Positions 5,685 to 45,656 of a stretch of DNA of 48,759 bases are shown piece by piece. Origin of the DNA: Bacteroidaceae bacterium (GTDB lineage: Bacteria; Bacteroidota; Bacteroidia; Bacteroidales; Bacteroidaceae). The DNA is taken from NCBI GenBank assembly GCA_017396545.1, contig JAFQLT010000134.1:1-48759 (forward strand), given 5' to 3'. A model generated the notes under the pieces. That model searched no databases. It had not been told where the DNA came from and saw only the letters and a program-made list of their open reading frames with translations. The position numbers and the translations under genes were made by a program. Each line of letters starts with the position of its first letter. Positions within the stretch are counted from its first letter, which is position 1.

Positions 5685-5690
5685 TGTCAA

Positions 5691-5739
5691 TTGACAGTTG
5701 AAAGTTGACAATGGACAATTGACAGTTGACAATGGACAA
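5691..5739 (+). repeat. Seven tandem heptamers: TTGACAG TTGAAAG TTGACAA TGGACAA TTGACAG TTGACAA TGGACAA
   Basis: Read directly from the sequence. The array begins 7 nt after the TGA stop (5682-5684). TGTCAA/TTGACA forms a 12-nt perfect palindrome at 5685-5696. Confidence 0.9.
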
Positions 5740-5747
5740 TAAAAACA

Positions 5748-5777
5748 AGCCCACAAGGTAGCGCTACCTTGTGGGCT
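5748..5777. terminator. Bidirectional intrinsic terminator hairpin between convergent genes
   Basis: Perfect palindrome AGCCCACAAGGTAGC/GCTACCTTGTGGGCT. The AAAAACA run on its left becomes a U-run for the minus-strand gene. Confidence 0.7.
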
Positions 5778-5805
5778 ATATTGTTGCCTTAATTACTACG
5801 ACCCG

Positions 5806-6909
5806 TCACTCCTCTACGCGGAGCAGGGCGCCGGTGGCGGGGTCGAGCAGCACCTTGGTGTCCTTACCTTTCTTTCGGGTGAGGAGGTCGCTCGAGAGCG
5901 TCTCGGTGTTGCCGAACTGGGCCAGGGTGAGGAGCTCTTCGGCCAGGATCTGCGTGTTGGTGTAGATGTTCACCTCCGCCTTGCCGGGGATGTTGTAGAC
6001 CAGGCCGTCCTGCAGGTTCTCGTCTTTTTTCTTGAGCTTCTTTGTGGGCTTTGTCTCTTCGGCTACGGGCCCTGGGGCAGGTACTGTCTGCTTGTTCTTG
6101 ACATCGATGTAGAGGGGTGCACCGGCCAGGTCGTCGCCATGGAGCAAGCCGAGCTTGCGCGAGAAGCGACCGAAGATGACACGCTCGGCACTGCCCGTGG
6201 GAATCACCTGATAGGTCTGTGTGGAGGTCTCCGTGGTGGTGGTGCCTGTGAAGAGTTGTGTGAGGGCCTCCTCCTGTTCTTGCAGGCCGGCGAGGATGAG
6301 GCGCAGGGCCTCGGCGTCCTTGGGCATGTGCTCGTTTTGGCCACGCATGATGAGGTTCTTGCTCTCGCGTATGCTGTATATCTCCTTGGCTACCAGCTCG
6401 GCCAGCTTGGCCTTGGAGCTCGTCATGAGCATCTCTTCGGTCATGTAGGAACGGACAGCAACCCCTTTCTTGGCTGTGGGGGCTGGGGCAGGAGCTGCCT
6501 TGGGGGTGGCTGCCGGCGTGTCCGGTACGGTGGTGTTGATGCCCAGCAGTATGCCTGACTCGGTGAGGCTGACAAGCGGGGCTACGCTGCCCGGAGCGAA
6601 GAGAATGTGGTATAGCTTCGTGTCATCGGGAAGCCCCTCGGTAGAGAGGGTCGCCGACAGGATGGTGTGGTAGGTGTCTGCCTTGTCAGAGATGCCCGTG
6701 ATGCGAAGGTAGCGGTCGGCATACTGGCACAGCTCGCCGGGCGTGTAGGTGGTCTGCTCGGTGGTGATGCTGACGTTGATAGCCGTCTTGGGCAGATAGT
6801 ATGCCGCCCCTTCGGTGGACACGCCGGGCCGGTAGGTGGTGATGGTGGTCTGGGCCATGGTGGCTATGCTGCACAGGAGCATGAACGTAGCGGTGAGTCT
6901 GTTTTTCAT
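5806..6909 (-). CDS. DUF4831-like secreted protein (367 aa)
   Basis: ORF track 5806..7038. I start it at ATG 6909 (MKNRLTATFMLLCSIATMAQ), a signal peptide. The YYLPKT...YTPGELCQYADRYL region resembles the Bacteroidales DUF4831 family; this is assigned from memory, not from a search. Confidence 0.7.
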   Translation of the reverse strand: MKNRLTATFMLLCSIATMAQTTITTYRPGVSTEGAAYYLPKTAINVSITTEQTTYTPGELCQYADRYLRITGISDKADTYHTILSATLSTEGLPDDTKLYHILFAPGSVAPLVSLTESGILLGINTTVPDTPAATPKAAPAPAPTAKKGVAVRSYMTEEMLMTSSKAKLAELVAKEIYSIRESKNLIMRGQNEHMPKDAEALRLILAGLQEQEEALTQLFTGTTTTETSTQTYQVIPTGSAERVIFGRFSRKLGLLHGDDLAGAPLYIDVKNKQTVPAPGPVAEETKPTKKLKKKDENLQDGLVYNIPGKAEVNIYTNTQILAEELLTLAQFGNTETLSSDLLTRKKGKDTKVLLDPATGALLRVEE

Positions 6910-7053
6910 ATTGGTGCGATTGATGTTGCTAATGAGTTGTAAAGGTAGTGCATTTTCTTGGATGTAGCTACTGTTTGGCTGTTTTTCGTCGTTTTTTTCT
7001 TTGTCGACGTAAAAAAGAGAGACTATATTGGCTGACAATCGGCGGAAAATACG

Positions 7054-7061
7054 TATTTTTG
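7054..7061 (+). promoter_or_regulatory. Candidate -7 box TATTTTTG upstream of adk
   Basis: Exact TAnnTTTG match about 65 nt upstream of ATG 7126. Confidence 0.45.
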
Positions 7062-7125
7062 TAGGACTTTCGCATAGTATGGCGATAAAGGGACGGCATA
7101 ATACATTTATATAATATAGTAACTT

Positions 7126-7704
7126 ATGTTGAACATTGTAATTTTTGGAGCTCCTGGCTCAGGAAAAGGGACATACAGTGCCCGTCTGGTAGACACATTC
7201 AAGTTGGACCACATCTCTACGGGCGACGTGCTCCGCAACGAGATCAAAAATGGCACCGAGCTGGGCAAGGTAGCCCAGTGCTACATTGATCGCGGTAACC
7301 TCATCCCCGATGAACTGATGATTGACATCCTTGCCAGCAAGTACGACACGTTCAAGGGCAGCAAGGGTGTGATCTTCGACGGATTCCCCCGCACCATCGC
7401 CCAGGCCGAGGCCCTGAAGGTGATGCTCGAGGAGCGTGGCGAGAAGATCTCGGCCATGATCAACCTCGAGGTGGACGAGGAGATCCTGATGGCCCGCCTG
7501 CTGCGTCGCGCTACGCTCGAAGGCCGCGCCGACGACAACGAGGTGACCATCAAGAAGCGTTTCTCGATATATCACCACCAGACCGCTCCGCTCATCGAGT
7601 GGTTCAAGGCAGAGGGCGTGTTCAAGGGATTCACCTATACCGACGAGATTGGCCTTGAGGGCATGGTGAAGAACATTACGGAATACGTCAATACGATAAT
7701 TTAA
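7126..7704 (+). CDS. adk: Adenylate kinase
   Basis: P-loop GAPGSGKGT. Other typical adenylate kinase segments are present: ISTGDVLR, the lid-less short form, and FDGFPRT. Confidence 0.95.
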   Translation: MLNIVIFGAPGSGKGTYSARLVDTFKLDHISTGDVLRNEIKNGTELGKVAQCYIDRGNLIPDELMIDILASKYDTFKGSKGVIFDGFPRTIAQAEALKVMLEERGEKISAMINLEVDEEILMARLLRRATLEGRADDNEVTIKKRFSIYHHQTAPLIEWFKAEGVFKGFTYTDEIGLEGMVKNITEYVNTII

Positions 7705-7715
7705 TCTTTTTAGAC

Positions 7716-7924
7716 TATAAAGGAGATAAATGGAGTTAAAGGCCAATAGCTCTTAGGAGTCAGGAGTTAAAGGGAGTTATCGCTTCGCTCTTGGGGAGAT
7801 AAAGGCCAATAGCTCTTTCGCGCGTAATAACTATTGGCATTTAACTCCATTTAACTCCTTCTATCTCCCTTTATCTCCTAAACATTTGGCCTTTATCTCC
7901 ATTTAACTCTCTTTATCTCCTATA
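7716..7924. repeat. Imperfect palindrome of about 209 nt built from 10-nt-period words, filling the adk-obg spacer
   Basis: The words are GGAGATAAA, GGAGTTAAA and GGCCAATAG with their complements. The left half (7716-7815) carries purine-rich words and the right half (7826-7924) their complements (TTTAACTCC, TTTATCTCC, CTATTGGC). Terminal pairing was checked by hand: 7722-7730 with 7912-7920, 7733-7740 with 7902-7909, and 7741-7746 with 7886-7891 after a 10-nt word-sized bulge. Confidence 0.8.
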
Positions 7925-7937
7925 AACAAGAAGAATT

Positions 7938-9119
7938 GTGGCAGAAACAAACTTCGTTGATTACGTAAAGATCTATTGTCGATCGGGCAAGGGGGGGCGT
8001 GGCAGCACGCACATGCGCCGTGTGAAGTATAATCCCAACGGTGGCCCTGACGGTGGTAACGGTGGACGTGGAGGGCACATCATCCTGCGCGGCAACCGCA
8101 ACTACTGGACCCTGCTGCACCTGCGCTACGACCGGCATGCCTTTGCCGGGCATGGCGGCAACGGCTCGAAGAACAAGAGCAGCGGCAAGGATGGCGAGGA
8201 CAAAATCATAGAGGTGCCCTGCGGAACGGTAGTGTACAATGCCGAGACGGGGGCTTACCTGTGCGACATCACCGAGCATGGGCAGGAGGTGATCCTGCTG
8301 CGGGGCGGACGTGGCGGTTTGGGTAACTTCAACTTCGCTACACCGACTCGCCAGGCACCGCGCTTTGCCCAACCGGGCGAACCCATGCAGGAACTCACCG
8401 TCATCATGGAGCTGAAGCTGCTGGCCGATGTGGGTCTGGTGGGCTTCCCCAATGCCGGCAAGTCGACGCTGCTCGCTGCCGTGTCGGCAGCCAAGCCCAA
8501 GATAGCCAACTACCCCTTCACCACGTTGGAGCCTAACCTCGGTATCGTGTCGTACCGCGACAGCAAGTCGTTCGTGATGGCCGATATCCCCGGTATCATT
8601 GAGGGTGCCAGTGCCGGAAAGGGACTCGGCCTACGCTTCCTGCGCCACATCGAGCGCAACTCACTGCTCCTCTTCATGGTACCCGGCGATGCCGAGGACA
8701 TACGCAAGGAGTACGACATCCTGCTCAACGAGTTGGCGACGTTCAACCCCGACATGCTCGACAAACAACGCGTGCTGGCCATCACCAAGTGTGACCTGCT
8801 CGATGAAGAACTCATCGAAATGCTGGAGGAAACATTGCCCGAGGGTATACCCCACGTGTTCATCTCCTCAGTGACAGGATTAGGCGTGTCGGTGCTGAAG
8901 GATATCCTGTGGAACGAACTGAACAAGGAGAGCATACATGCTGAACTCAGCAAGGATAGCCTCGTACACCGTGCCAAGGACATGACCAAGCTACAGGACG
9001 AGCTGCGTGCCATGGGGCAGGATGATGACATCACCGTAGAGTATGATGACATCGAGGAGATGGAGGACTTCGAGTATGAGTTTGACGATGGCTTTGAACT
9101 TGACGAAGGGGACGAATGA
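7938..9119 (+). CDS. obg: GTPase Obg/CgtA
   Basis: GTG start giving [23 protein letters not shown] (Obg fold). G-domain motifs [15 protein letters not shown] and TKCD are present, followed by an acidic C-terminal tail. Confidence 0.95.
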
Positions 9120-9128
9120 GGCTGTAGT

Positions 9129-9154
9129 GTCATCCTGAGCGAAGCGAAGGATCT
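9129..9154 (+). repeat. Single arm of the GTCATCCTGAGCGAAGCGAAGGATCT repeat family
   Basis: Lies directly after the obg stop. The same core (CTGAGCG..GAAGGATC) recurs as hairpin pairs at 23202-23299, 23688-23756 and 45566-45656. Confidence 0.6.
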
Positions 9155-9177: not shown

Positions 9178-9369
9178 ATGAACGGAGACGATATTTTCAC
9201 CAAAGGCATCATGTTCAAGAAGGTGGCCACGGACCAACCCAAGGAGGAGAAGGTGAAGACCAAGGCCAAGAAGAAAGCCTATATCACGGGACAGCACCAC
9301 TCGGCATCGGCCAAGATGAAGGCTGAGATACGGCGCAAGCGTGCCAATAGACATAAGAATAAGGGGTGA
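9178..9369 (+). CDS. Small lysine/arginine-rich hypothetical protein (63 aa)
   Basis: ATG-started ORF ending inside a strong terminator hairpin. I recognise no family, so coding status is uncertain. Confidence 0.35.
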   Translation: MNGDDIFTKGIMFKKVATDQPKEEKVKTKAKKKAYITGQHHSASAKMKAEIRRKRANRHKNKG

Positions 9370-9389
9370 GCGAGGCTCACCCCTTTATT
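9361..9389. terminator. Intrinsic terminator hairpin between convergent units
   Basis: GGGGTGAGC-gag-GCTCACCCC followed by TTTATT. Confidence 0.7.
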
Positions 9390-23641: not shown

Positions 23642-23687
23642 TGATTGTATAAAGTAAAGTGCCTAAATTGTTAATATCGTTAAGTTG

Positions 23688-23756
23688 TTGTCCTGAGCGA
23701 CGCGAAGGACCTAACGCAATGCTATGAGGAGATTCTTCGTGTCGCTCAGAATGATA
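23688..23756. repeat. Hairpin copy of the CTGAGCGAC(G/A)CGAAG(G/A)A(C/T)C element
   Basis: The left arm TCCTGAGCGACGCGAAGGAC (23691-23710) pairs with the right arm GATTCTTCGTGTCGCTCAGAATGA (23731-23754). About 18 of 21 core positions are complementary. Confidence 0.6.
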
Positions 23757-36132: not shown

Positions 36133-36151
36133 TCTGCGGCACGTTCGATTT

Positions 36152-36292
36152 AGTTGGGAGTTAGGAATTAGGAGTTAGGAGTTACATGCTCCGTCAAACC
36201 TAAATTCCTAACTCCTAACTTTATTTTAATTCTTGGATACAGTTGAGGGGGCTCCTAACTCCTCATTCCTAACTCCTAACTCCTAATTATTA
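36152..36292. repeat. Heptamer-word inverted array (GTTAGGA/ATTAGGA and complements) filling the rpmF-era spacer
   Basis: The left array is GTTGGGA GTTAGGA ATTAGGA GTTAGGA GTTAC at 36153-36185. Complementary arrays lie at 36199-36220 and 36252-36290. Hand-checked perfect pairings are 36166-36184 with 36270-36288 (19 bp) and 36173-36184 with 36209-36220 (12 bp). Confidence 0.85.
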
Positions 36293-36297
36293 AACCC

Positions 36298-37179
36298 GTG
36301 CACAAAGCAGGATTCGTAAATATCGTGGGCAACCCCAATGTGGGTAAGTCGACACTGATGAACAAGTTTGTCGGTGAACGCATATCCATTGCCACCTTCA
36401 AGGCGCAGACTACGCGTCACCGCATCATGGGAATCGTGAATACGGACGACATGCAGATCGTATTCTCCGACACGCCCGGCGTACTCAAGCCTAACTATAA
36501 GTTGCAGGAGTCAATGCTGCAGTTCTCCGAGTCGGCGTTGCAGGATGCCGATGTTCTCGTCTACGTCACCGACGTGGTGGAGAAGATCGACAAGAACCAG
36601 GACTTCTTGCAGAAGGTGCAGCGCATGGACGTTCCCATCCTGTTGCTCATCAACAAGATTGACATGAGCAATCAGAAGGAGCTTACCGCCCTCGTTGAGG
36701 AGTGGCACGAACTGTTGCCGCAGGCGGAGATTATTCCCATCTCGGCATCGAACAACTTCAATGTTGATGTAGTGCTACGCCGCATCAAGGATCTGTTGCC
36801 CGACAGTCCGCCCTTTTTCGACAAGGACCAGCTGACGGACAAACCCGCCCGTTTCTTCGTCACCGAGATTATCCGTGAAAAGATTCTCCTCTACTACGAT
36901 AAGGAGATACCTTACTCCTGTGAGGTGAGCGTGGAGCAGTTCAAGGAGACGGAGAAGAACATCCACATCAATGCAGTGATTTATGTGGAGCGCGAGTCGC
37001 AGAAGGGCATCATCATTGGCAACCAGGGCAAGGCGCTGAAGAAGGTGATGACCGAGGCACGCCGCTCTTTGGAGCAGTTCTTCGGCAAGAGCATATACCT
37101 CGAAACCTTTGTGAAAGTAGATAAGGATTGGCGCAACTCGGACAAGGAGCTGCGTAGCTTTGGATATAACCTTGAATAA
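36298..37179 (+). CDS. era: GTPase Era
   Basis: GTG start (VHKAGFVNIVGNPNVGKST). G motifs DTPG and NKID are present, with a C-terminal KH domain (VERESQKGIIIGNQGKALK). Confidence 0.95.
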   Translation: MHKAGFVNIVGNPNVGKSTLMNKFVGERISIATFKAQTTRHRIMGIVNTDDMQIVFSDTPGVLKPNYKLQESMLQFSESALQDADVLVYVTDVVEKIDKNQDFLQKVQRMDVPILLLINKIDMSNQKELTALVEEWHELLPQAEIIPISASNNFNVDVVLRRIKDLLPDSPPFFDKDQLTDKPARFFVTEIIREKILLYYDKEIPYSCEVSVEQFKETEKNIHINAVIYVERESQKGIIIGNQGKALKKVMTEARRSLEQFFGKSIYLETFVKVDKDWRNSDKELRSFGYNLE

Positions 37180-37263
37180 AATTAGGAGTTAGGAATTAGG
37201 AGTTGAAACTCCACGAAGCCCACCGCGGCACTAAAAATTCCTAACTCCTAATTCCTAATTTAG
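37178..37263. repeat. Second heptamer-word hairpin (AATTAGG AGTTAGG ...) filling the era-der spacer
   Basis: It starts at the era stop codon. A perfect 18-bp stem pairs 37180-37197 (AATTAGGAGTTAGGAATT) with 37236-37253. An inner 6-bp mini-hairpin is GGAGTT-gaa-AACTCC. The 18-mer differs by 1 nt from the one at 36166-36183. Confidence 0.85.
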
Positions 37264-38599: not shown

Positions 38600-38640
38600 A
38601 AGGGGAGGGGGTGACTTTGCAAAGTCAGCCCCTCCCTTTC
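38600..38640 (+). terminator. Intrinsic terminator after der
   Basis: AAAGGGGAGGGGGTGACTTT-gc-AAAGTCAGCCCCTCCCTTT with one mismatch, followed by a T-rich tail. Confidence 0.7.
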
Positions 38641-39679: not shown

Positions 39680-39838
39680 GGAGTAATAAAAGTTTATTTT
39701 TGGGCTGGCATTGGCACGAGGAAAATCATACATAGGGTGGATTATTGTACATCTGTTCAGGCAAACGTGTACGATTTTGAACCTCGTTCGGCGAATATCG
39801 CAGTGCCAATGCCAGCCCAAAAATAAACTTTTTACTCC
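39680..39838. repeat. Long inverted repeat with 30 bp perfect (36 bp with a 2-nt bulge) around an 85-nt core
   Basis: Arm 1 at 39688-39717 is AAAAGTTTATTTTTGGGCTGGCATTGGCAC. Arm 2 at 39803-39832 is its exact reverse complement. An outer GGAGTA/TACTCC extension adds to the stem. An inner CGAGG/CCTCG pairing lies at 39717-39721 with 39782-39786. Confidence 0.9.
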
Positions 39839-39904: not shown

Positions 39905-39967
39905 GAATCGGACAAAGAGATTTCTCCTCGTCTCTTTGTCCGATTCAAAAAAACTCTTTGTCCGATT
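39905..39967. repeat. 16-bp perfect hairpin plus a third direct copy of its 3' arm
   Basis: GAATCGGACAAAGAGA (39905-39920) pairs with TCTCTTTGTCCGATTC (39931-39946). An A7 run follows, then CTCTTTGTCCGATT again at 39954-39967, followed by TTTC. Confidence 0.7.
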
Positions 39968-45565: not shown

Positions 45566-45656
45566 GTCATTCTGAACGTAGTGAAGAATCTCGCAAAGTT
45601 TCTTGCAGTATAAATCTCTGTCCTTGCGCGGGATCCTTCGTTGCACTCAGGATGAC
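45566..45656. repeat. Hairpin copy of the GTCAT(C/T)CTGA...GAAG(G/A)ATC element between the PNP gene and thiL
   Basis: The left arm GTCATTCTGAACGTAGTGAAGAATC (45566-45590) pairs with the right arm GGATCCTTCGTTGCACTCAGGATGAC (45631-45656). The arms are imperfectly complementary. Confidence 0.65.

Follow-up and report, generated by a model that had tools for sequence, protein, structure and literature searches.

A strain-variable palindromic word repeat between adk and obg in a Bacteroidaceae bacterium

The spacer between adk (adenylate kinase) and obg (the GTPase Obg) on contig JAFQLT010000134.1 of a Bacteroidaceae bacterium (assembly GCA_017396545.1), analysed here over a stretch of 48,759 nucleotides (the window), is filled by one long imperfect hairpin built from short repeated words. 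Good evidence places this element in a dispersed family of palindromic repeats, low in copy number and found in an uncultured genus of ruminant-gut Bacteroidaceae, and shows that it is not the product of the adk–obg locus alone. Its identity is well supported: the palindrome, its family membership, its polymorphism among strains, the recurrence of hairpins at the same junction in relatives and the co-evolution of the arms in sister hairpins were all observed directly. Its function is a more tentative matter, and we consider it plausible, though short of probable, that this fast-evolving intercistronic repeat acts in the adk–obg operon as an RNA stem-loop attenuator or stabiliser.

The arms of the element are tandem decamers, GGAG(A/T)TAAAN, equivalent to the heptamer GGAGTTA followed by AAN, arranged around a conserved core that runs from GGCCAATAG through the loop CTCTTTCGCGCGT to CTATTGGC (Table 1). 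Pairing of GCCAATAG (7805–7812) with CTATTGGC (7831–7838) closes the apical loop at 7813–7830, the complement of which contains ACGCGCGAAAG, the conserved core of the family. Nine copies of GGAGWTAAA occur in the window, every one of them in this spacer: the left half has four, all on the plus strand, and the right half five, all on the minus strand; chance would give 0.5, and none of 100 shuffles reached nine. Inverted repeats of 36 nt (89%), 24 nt (92%), 27 nt and 23 nt link the two halves with 87–92% complementarity, and Tandem Repeats Finder gives both arms a period of 10 nt. A first-pass annotation of this DNA had placed an imperfect palindrome at 7716–7924, with left-half words mirrored as complements in the right half and an end 13 nt before the obg GTG; its coordinates and content hold, the word counts and inverted repeats bear out the mirror arrangement, and the GTG lies at 7938 as described. 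The element termini, GGAGATAAA (7722–7730) and TTTATCTCC (7912–7920), are exact complements, like the terminal inverted repeats of miniature transposable elements with inverted repeats (MITEs). Four independent metagenome contigs with identical Obg carry the same 233-nt spacer base for base. Coding potential in the spacer amounts to an eight-codon open reading frame (ORF) on the plus strand, and the antisense ORFs are spurious.

The mirror order of the words matters beyond their composition. As plus-strand RNA the spacer folds into a long hairpin with a minimum free energy (MFE) of −80.2 kcal/mol (z = −7.5; none of 200 shuffles as good), whose outermost pair directly adjoins the adk stop codon (0 nt) on one side and stands 3 nt short of the obg start codon on the other. 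The minus strand reaches −87.0 kcal/mol (z = −7.4), and the spacer folded as DNA reaches −44.3 kcal/mol (z = −8.05). Taken alone, the element at 7716–7924 folds at −77.3 kcal/mol, compared with −55.3 ± 5.0 kcal/mol when its 10-nt blocks are shuffled element-wide and −55.2 ± 5.4 kcal/mol when they are shuffled within arms, and 0 of 300 shuffles reach −77.3 by either scheme. Because block-shuffled sequences fold about 22 kcal/mol worse, mirror order contributes that much over word composition. The first-pass annotation had argued for a structured palindrome over a neutral low-complexity spacer, naming pairing no better than that of word-shuffled sequence as the outcome that would overturn its view; the folds and block shuffles come out on its side. 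It had also proposed a 10-nt bulge between the pairings 7733–7740/7902–7909 and 7741–7746/7886–7891. These segments are indeed exact complements, separated on the right arm by the 10-nt word 7892–7901, but the bulge represents only one possible register: the MFE fold pairs 7723–7746 with 7886–7909 and has no 10-nt bulge.

Homologous copies of the element occur at other loci. In a congener (locus L010), positions 6376–6524 match the window element at 78% identity over 157 nt (E = 6e-28) in reverse orientation, and this copy occupies another junction, the one that separates an hpt-like phosphoribosyltransferase gene from adk. The match extends through sequence outside the words, including GGCCAAATGTTT, ACGCGCGAAAG, TATTGGC and then GAGCGAAGCGATA exactly 14 nt on. 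A scan of metagenomes with the 18-base core returned 26 matches, of which L093 and L100 are genuine members; the other 24, from unrelated contigs of soil or marine origin, were rejected as coincidental. Both genuine members combine the family core with words in unrelated gene contexts, L100 with an AAA-ATPase gene on one side and an unknown gene on the other, and L093 after an endonuclease/exonuclease/phosphatase-family gene. An nhmmer profile of the four members, searched against about 1.5 Mb of Bacteroidaceae loci and then 123 kb from closer relatives, added a single weak member, L051 from a Mediterranea species, immediately downstream of adk. The family is therefore not supported as a high-copy MITE, since the profile search yields only this weak addition; the 48.7-kb window holds one copy and some 220 kb of genus-level sequence a second (two in about 270 kb). 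The family core has no match in the viral contigs of IMG/VR. TATAAA at 7716–7721 and 7921–7926 forms a possible 6-bp direct repeat around the window copy, where the flanks are AT-rich, and short direct repeats are expected there by chance for that reason. No consistent target-site duplication emerged, with none comparable in L100 and a doubtful one in L010, and no transposase or parent insertion sequence (IS) was seen beside any copy, although a genome-wide search was not made. In L093 (minus strand, about 215–440) the family member lies inside an outer hairpin (ACTCAAC...GTTGAG) and adjoins the palindrome CTTTCGCATGCGAAAG. The sequence TTGCGAAAC stands directly 3′ of the element in both L093 and L010 (6525–6545), and because these two copies share it, the homologous unit may reach past the word arms.

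The element also contains a fragment related to a second repeat. The first-pass annotation had read ATCGCTTCGCTC at 7779–7790 as complementary to the core of another sequence family, and the exact 11-mer GAGCGAAGCGA is indeed common to the complement of the element and a 22-mer at 9129–9150 that resembles repetitive extragenic palindromic (REP) sequences, and to nothing else in the window (two matches against 0.01 expected). The fragment is unpaired in the fold of the element and is kept in three of four family members, at the same offset in L010 and L093. The 22-mer GTCATCCTGAGCGAAGCGAAGG occurs again at 45635–45656 (minus strand) and forms an inverted, REPIN-like doublet at 23687–23749. The exact 23-mer CATCCTGAGCGAAGCGAAGGATC is found in 28 IMG/VR contigs with GC contents of 47–69%, at times as inverted doublets (L138), and the distribution of this REP-like repeat is thus very wide.

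Strains differ in the length of the element. Contigs with identical Adk carry spacers of 233, 264 and 348 nt, in addition to two N-gapped scaffolds, and every form can be described by doubling of a 63-nt left-arm module, doubling of a 52-nt right-arm module or loss of 32 nt (Table 1). The indel endpoints fall within repeated words, and MFE per nucleotide stays between −0.34 and −0.36 kcal/mol across the length variants. Word slippage with retention of hairpin potential had been suggested from the first reading of the sequence; gain and loss of repeated units and persistence of the hairpin stand, but the steps are multi-word modules of 63, 52 and 32 nt and not single 10-nt words. The arms change independently, as in the 264-nt type with its left duplication and right deletion, and strict symmetry is not kept. 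Nested self-insertion as a cause of symmetric arm growth was rejected on the same ground. The length variants follow lineages whose flanking sequence diverges by about 1%, the 264-nt type being the mark of a single one. These variants come from short-read assemblies; each module is shorter than one read, and independent samples show the same ones. N-runs lie inside the element in L116 and L120, where the repeat has broken the assembly. The asymmetric core keeps the same orientation in all 10 strain assemblies.

Hairpins of some kind recur at the adk–obg junction, and the particular hairpin is species-specific. The nearest genomes are uncultured Bacteroidaceae metagenome-assembled genomes from ruminant and other animal guts; Obg is 94–96% identical to that of the window in seven congeneric species and about 80% identical in Bacteroides and Phocaeicola. 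Synteny of adk and obg is kept across Bacteroidaceae and the spacer sequence is not: the seven congeners have spacers of 28–114 nt with other content and without the element. Among 76 Bacteroidaceae adk–obg spacers surveyed, 38 distinct ones measure 60–350 nt, and 33 of these fold with z < −2 (median −4.25). The well-folding spacers are mutually unrelated in sequence and comprise about six classical GC hairpins with a T-run and several word hairpins, including those of L005 (TTAGGAA/CTCCTAA), L037 (GGAGTTAAAG/AAGTTAAAG) and L063 (TTGAGAA/TTCTCAA). Comparison of spacers in relatives, which the first-pass annotation had proposed as a check, thus finds the spacer itself unconserved while the presence of a hairpin is recurrent. 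Several Bacteroides carry solitary G-poor heptamer arrays (TTCTAAC, TAATCAC, TCACTAA and others) directly upstream of the obg start, with no complementary arm.

Two sister hairpins lie elsewhere in the window, in the rpmF–era and era–der spacers, and all three word hairpins precede genes for ribosome-assembly GTPases: obg, era and der. The sister hairpins show no length polymorphism in ten strain contigs, several of which end at the hairpin upstream of era, and in relatives the era–der spacer measures only 3–45 nt. At the rpmF–era junction, word hairpins occur in four lineages with different words (GGAGTTA, AGAGTTA/AGAGTGA, AGAGGGA and AATTAGG), and in every lineage the 3′ arm complements its own 5′ words. 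Thirteen of 26 pairs have changed on both sides, compared with 6.8 ± 1.5 in shuffles (0 of 500 reach 13), and 91% of cells are paired against 40–56% with slid partners. In L165 a canonical GC-rich hairpin with a T-run takes the place of the word hairpin.

Word hairpins have a fixed polarity. Across 78 Bacteroidaceae loci (L005–L084) and the window, we identified 25 intergenic word-array hairpins, of which 21 are G-first (5′ arm poor in C, 3′ arm poor in G) and 3 are C-first (binomial p = 2.8e-4); 91 other intergenic hairpins show no such bias (43 versus 38). Inversion of an element leaves G-first polarity unchanged, and it holds in six of six convergent-gene contexts. Of 712 spacers of at least 40 nt, 25 (about 3.5%) contain word hairpins, roughly in proportion to context type, with no significant enrichment in co-directional versus divergent spacers. 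Short-period arrays more generally are intergenic in 124 of 185 cases in 1.4 Mb of Bacteroidaceae loci, 86% of which is coding; on the sense strand, arrays that closely follow a stop codon are rich in G and poor in C, and arrays that closely precede a start codon are poor in G.

The TAnnTTTG box is the Bacteroides-type −7 promoter element, and its single match between 6900 and 8100, TATTTTTG, lies upstream of adk. A scan for Bacteroides −7/−33 motifs found none in the adk–obg spacer on either strand, and scans for sigma-70 promoters and intrinsic terminators found nothing in 7705–7937. In every strain contig, obg is followed by a conserved lysine-rich 63-aa ORF (9178–9369) that matches nothing in Pfam and ends in the hairpin at 9361–9385. 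With the sole −7 box at 7054, no promoter or terminator consensus in the spacer and the next terminator-like hairpin at 9361–9385, adk, obg and the 63-aa ORF probably form one transcript from a promoter upstream of adk. The element was inserted into the adk–obg spacer of the host species or expanded there, and its arms lengthen and shorten by slippage or unequal recombination between repeated words, giving rise to the length differences among strains. Transcribed, it would form a stem-loop of about 100 bp reaching from the adk stop codon to 3 nt before the obg start, and might serve as a leaky terminator or attenuator combined with a 3′ exonuclease barrier or processing site. A strongly expressed upstream gene would thereby be uncoupled from one that encodes a low-abundance GTPase. 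We propose a leaky-terminator or mRNA-stability role because relatives have canonical terminators at the same junctions and the upstream genes are the more strongly expressed; adk and rpmF are typically expressed far above GTPase genes. Such a role would parallel those of REP, ERIC and Correia elements elsewhere.

Several observations weigh against an RNA attenuator or stabiliser. No T/U-tract follows the stem, where the sequence is TATAAACAAGAAGAATT, and co-transcription is itself deduced from the absence of a consensus promoter motif. Relative to transcription, the family core is sense in three copies and antisense in the window. Covariation inside the decamer family is weak, with 3 of 20 pairs compensatory in a few, pattern-ascertained sequences, and the arm co-variation at rpmF–era could stem from gene conversion between arms instead of selection. 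Because 27 of the 76 adk–obg spacers in relatives are 40 nt or shorter, no element is needed there and it is dispensable. The antisense strand of the element folds at least as well as the sense strand, and across 16 word hairpins the comparison of sense with antisense comes out at 10 against 6 (p = 0.10, not significant); without a strand preference in folding, nothing favours selection on RNA over selection on DNA.

The strongest competitor, which we consider rather unlikely, is a selfish or neutral MITE-like mobile palindrome with no host function that settles in intergenic spacers, where it is tolerated because a self-folding insert causes little damage, and whose slippage is mutational noise. 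Homologous copies at non-orthologous loci in both orientations, presence in the host species and absence from congeners, hypervariability among strains, the possible TATAAA repeat around the GGAGATAAA...TTTATCTCC termini and the absence of a strand bias in folding would all be expected of such an element. It is harder to reconcile with the lack of a consistent target-site duplication in L010 or L100, the failure to see a transposase or parent IS, and a copy number as low as two in about 270 kb. Nor does a neutral palindrome predict that hairpins of unrelated sequence recur at the same junctions, that word hairpins are G-first 21 times against 3, or that the rpmF–era arms co-vary across species.

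Bacteroidetes start translation without Shine–Dalgarno (SD) pairing, on A/U-rich unstructured leaders. The G-free 3′ arm could on this basis be the obg leader, unstructured in itself and sequestered by the 5′ arm in a coupling or insulation device that brings the adk stop codon beside the obg start and makes obg translation depend on termination at adk. The base of the hairpin, 0 nt past the stop and 3 nt before the start, and the similar era and der hairpins suit such a device, as do the mostly G-poor arrays within 40 nt upstream of starts, the G-rich, C-poor arrays after stops and the solitary G-free heptamer arrays directly upstream of obg in L019, L020 and L022. We nevertheless hold translational coupling to be improbable: G-first polarity is equally found in the six of six convergent-gene hairpins, which have no adjacent start codon, a stem of about 100 bp is far beyond what a terminating ribosome opens, and the stop/start geometry follows automatically once an insert fills a short spacer.

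A role in DNA, as a protein-binding array, phased A-tract bend, cruciform or invertible promoter segment, appears very improbable. The 10-nt period equals the helical repeat, each word has an AAA or TTT run, the DNA hairpin has a z of about −8, neither RNA strand folds preferentially, and Bacteroides are rich in invertible promoters between inverted repeats. However, the sister hairpins have 7- and 8-nt periods that are not helically phased, the spacer has no Bacteroides −7 box on either strand, the core lies the same way round in 10 of 10 strain assemblies, and no regulator or recombinase gene is adjacent. An invertible promoter and an internal promoter were both rejected, as the spacer lacks TAnnTTTG and the core shows no inversion among the 10 assemblies. 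Least credible is a neutral low-complexity sequence or assembly artefact, which would account for AT-rich, simple words and for N-gaps inside the element in two assemblies but is refuted by the block shuffles, by identical sequence in independent assemblies and by the non-word core kept at other loci.

Reading polarity, placement and arm co-evolution together, it is possible, though doubtful, that selection maintains in Bacteroidaceae a so far undescribed class of intergenic stem-loops, 'polar word hairpins'. In such a class the 5′ arm may consist of 7–10-nt words of A, G and T and the 3′ arm of a complementary array of A, C and T; the hairpins may extend from stop to start at operon junctions, substitute for canonical terminators and vary in length among strains, with arms that may co-evolve as in GGAGTTA:TAACTCC, AGAGTGA:TCACTCT and GGAATTA:TAATTCC. 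Fixed G-first polarity whatever the flanking orientation would suggest a directional RNA mechanism in an SD-independent, Rho-rich phylum, in which C-rich RNA may be held paired against Rho loading or a G-free leader may be supplied.

Known repeats resemble the element in part. The Correia/NEMIS elements of Neisseria, ERIC/IRU of enterobacteria and BOX and RUP of pneumococcus are intergenic imperfect palindromes of 100–200 bp, often co-transcribed, that form long RNA hairpins altering mRNA stability or processing; their modules vary (boxB in BOX), as does their presence between strains and species. Transcription together with the neighbouring genes and processing by RNase III/E are marks of Correia/ERIC-like repeats. 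The element would work most like these, sharing an intergenic position, modular palindromic build and variable presence. It differs in lacking sequence similarity to them, in its 10-nt word arms, apparently low copy number and absence of a consistent TA or target duplication, in the polarity of its arms (C-poor 5′, G-poor 3′) and in belonging to Bacteroidota. REP, BIME and REPIN sequences, which are associated with RAYT (Y1) transposases, are likewise extragenic palindromes between co-directional or convergent genes, and 11 nt of the element (GAGCGAAGCGA) match a GTAG-tagged REP-like repeat exactly. Whereas REPs are high-copy units of 20–40 nt with a GTAG/CGTC tag, the element is low-copy, about 210 nt long and starts with GGAG words; its 209 nt end without a tag, and the internal 11-mer is all that is shared. 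It has been proposed that REPs stabilise mRNA or act as terminators (PMC3733652, PMC3116915).

In Beggiatoaceae, Cyanobacteria and some Bacteroidetes, direct repeats of TAACTGA-type heptamers are nearly all intergenic, lie in sense orientation a few nucleotides upstream of starts and occur sporadically, and a role in translational regulation has been proposed for them (MacGregor 2015, PMC4679880). These arrays are direct repeats without a complementary partner, with one inverted set reported (PMC4679880). The right-arm words of the window element (TAACTCC) and the solitary arrays before obg in relatives (TCACTAA, TAATCAC and TTCTAAC) are similar, but the element consists of paired complementary arrays in a long hairpin, with a 10-nt period and a conserved non-repeat core, and so falls outside this class. 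The array at 36252–36286 (five copies of CTCCTAA) fits the TAACTGA type better. Like an intrinsic terminator, the element is a stable hairpin just past a stop codon, and canonical terminators occupy the same junctions in relatives; unlike one, it has an AT-rich, imperfect stem of about 100 bp with no T/U-tract, and 7705–7937 contains no GC-rich stem followed by such a tract. Rfam at its gathering threshold reports only three tRNAs in the whole window, and permissive settings add only a sub-threshold match to a plant microRNA precursor (22.5 bits, threshold 85), such as any long hairpin might give. A literature search on MITEs and REPs of Bacteroides and on heptamer hairpins brought up no account of word hairpins with paired, polarised arms in Bacteroidaceae, and as far as that search reached they are apparently undescribed.

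Other repeats in the window stand apart from the element. At 5688–5740, just after the stop codon of a gene for an 1805-aa protein, 7-nt words (GACAATT/GACAGTT/GACAATG, with TTGACA inside them) form a direct array that lacks a complementary arm and is followed at 5750–5780 by a GC-rich terminator-like hairpin. A 40-nt palindrome just after der (38600–38639; AAGGGGAGGGGGTGACTTTGCAAAGTCAGCCCCTCCCTTT) is probably a bidirectional terminator. Farther on, at 39688–39832, the perfect 30-nt inverted repeat AAAAGTTTATTTTTGGGCTGGCATTGGCAC and its complement stand 85 nt apart; further inverted repeats of 16–18 nt, also perfect, form a second set at 39905–39967. A mobile or regulatory element of another kind may be present here.

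Table 1 Coordinates of the adk–obg element, its length variants and related features (window positions unless a locus is named).
Feature	Position	Strand	Details
Candidate adk–obg operon promoter, TATTTTTG	7054–7061	+	TAnnTTTG match; sole match in 6900–8100
adk	7126–7704	+	Adenylate kinase, 192 aa; PF00406
Whole adk–obg spacer	7705–7937	+	233 nt; one long imperfect hairpin
Left (5′) arm	7716–7812	+	GGAG(A/T)TAAAN words and GGCCAATAG blocks; G-rich, C-poor
Apical loop	7813–7830	+	CTCTTTCGCGCGTAATAA
Right (3′) arm	7831–7924	+	NTTTA(A/T)CTCC words and AAACATTTGGCC; C-rich, G-poor
REP-like fragment, GAGCGAAGCGAT	7779–7790	−	Exact 11-nt match to core of REP-like 22-mer
63-nt left-arm module	7755–7817	+	Twice in L114, L117, L119 and L120
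52-nt right-arm module	7840–7891	+	Doubled in L119 and L116
32-nt deleted segment	7869–7900	+	Between two TATCTCC words; L114, L117 and L120
obg	7938–9119	+	GTPase Obg, 393 aa, GTG start; PF01018
REP-like hairpin repeat, GTCATCCTGAGCGAAGCGAAGG	9129–9150	+	Preceded by GTAG; 10 nt past obg stop codon
GC-rich hairpin at end of 63-aa ORF	9361–9385		Next terminator-like hairpin; candidate end of adk–obg–ORF63 unit
Sister hairpin, rpmF–era	36151–36289	+	7-nt words GGAGTTA/GGAATTA and complements
Sister hairpin, era–der	37179–37261	+	7-nt words TTAGGAG/TTAGGAA
Spacer form, 233 nt	Five places		Reference form; one with a single-nucleotide polymorphism
Spacer form, 264 nt	L114, L117		Left 63-nt module doubled; right arm shorter by 32 nt between two TATCTCC words
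Spacer form, 348 nt	L119		Left 63-nt and right 52-nt modules both doubled; MFE −126 kcal/mol
Spacer forms, 363 and 364 nt	L116, L120		N-gapped scaffolds; same modules
Solitary G-poor arrays upstream of obg	L019 9963–9996; L020 9965–9996; L022 9962–9995; L014 9972–9998; L083 9931–9976
rpmF–era spacers of relatives	L159 9871–10000; L160 9865–10000; L161 9867–10000; L165 9925–10000

Expression signals in Bacteroidota are unusual, with different promoters, no use of Shine–Dalgarno sequences and few classical terminators. If word hairpins replace terminators or attenuators, they would supply a missing piece of how expression ratios within operons are set in gut Bacteroidaceae, including the operons of the essential GTPases Obg, Era and Der, and if they are regulatory, the length variation among strains would make them fast-evolving tuners of expression. 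If they are merely selfish repeats, they extend the known range of bacterial palindromic elements only modestly. Word hairpins disrupt short-read assemblies, leaving N-gaps and contig ends inside them, and their length variation can be used as a practical strain marker. The G-first polarity and the concerted evolution of the arms are the properties most worth pursuing.

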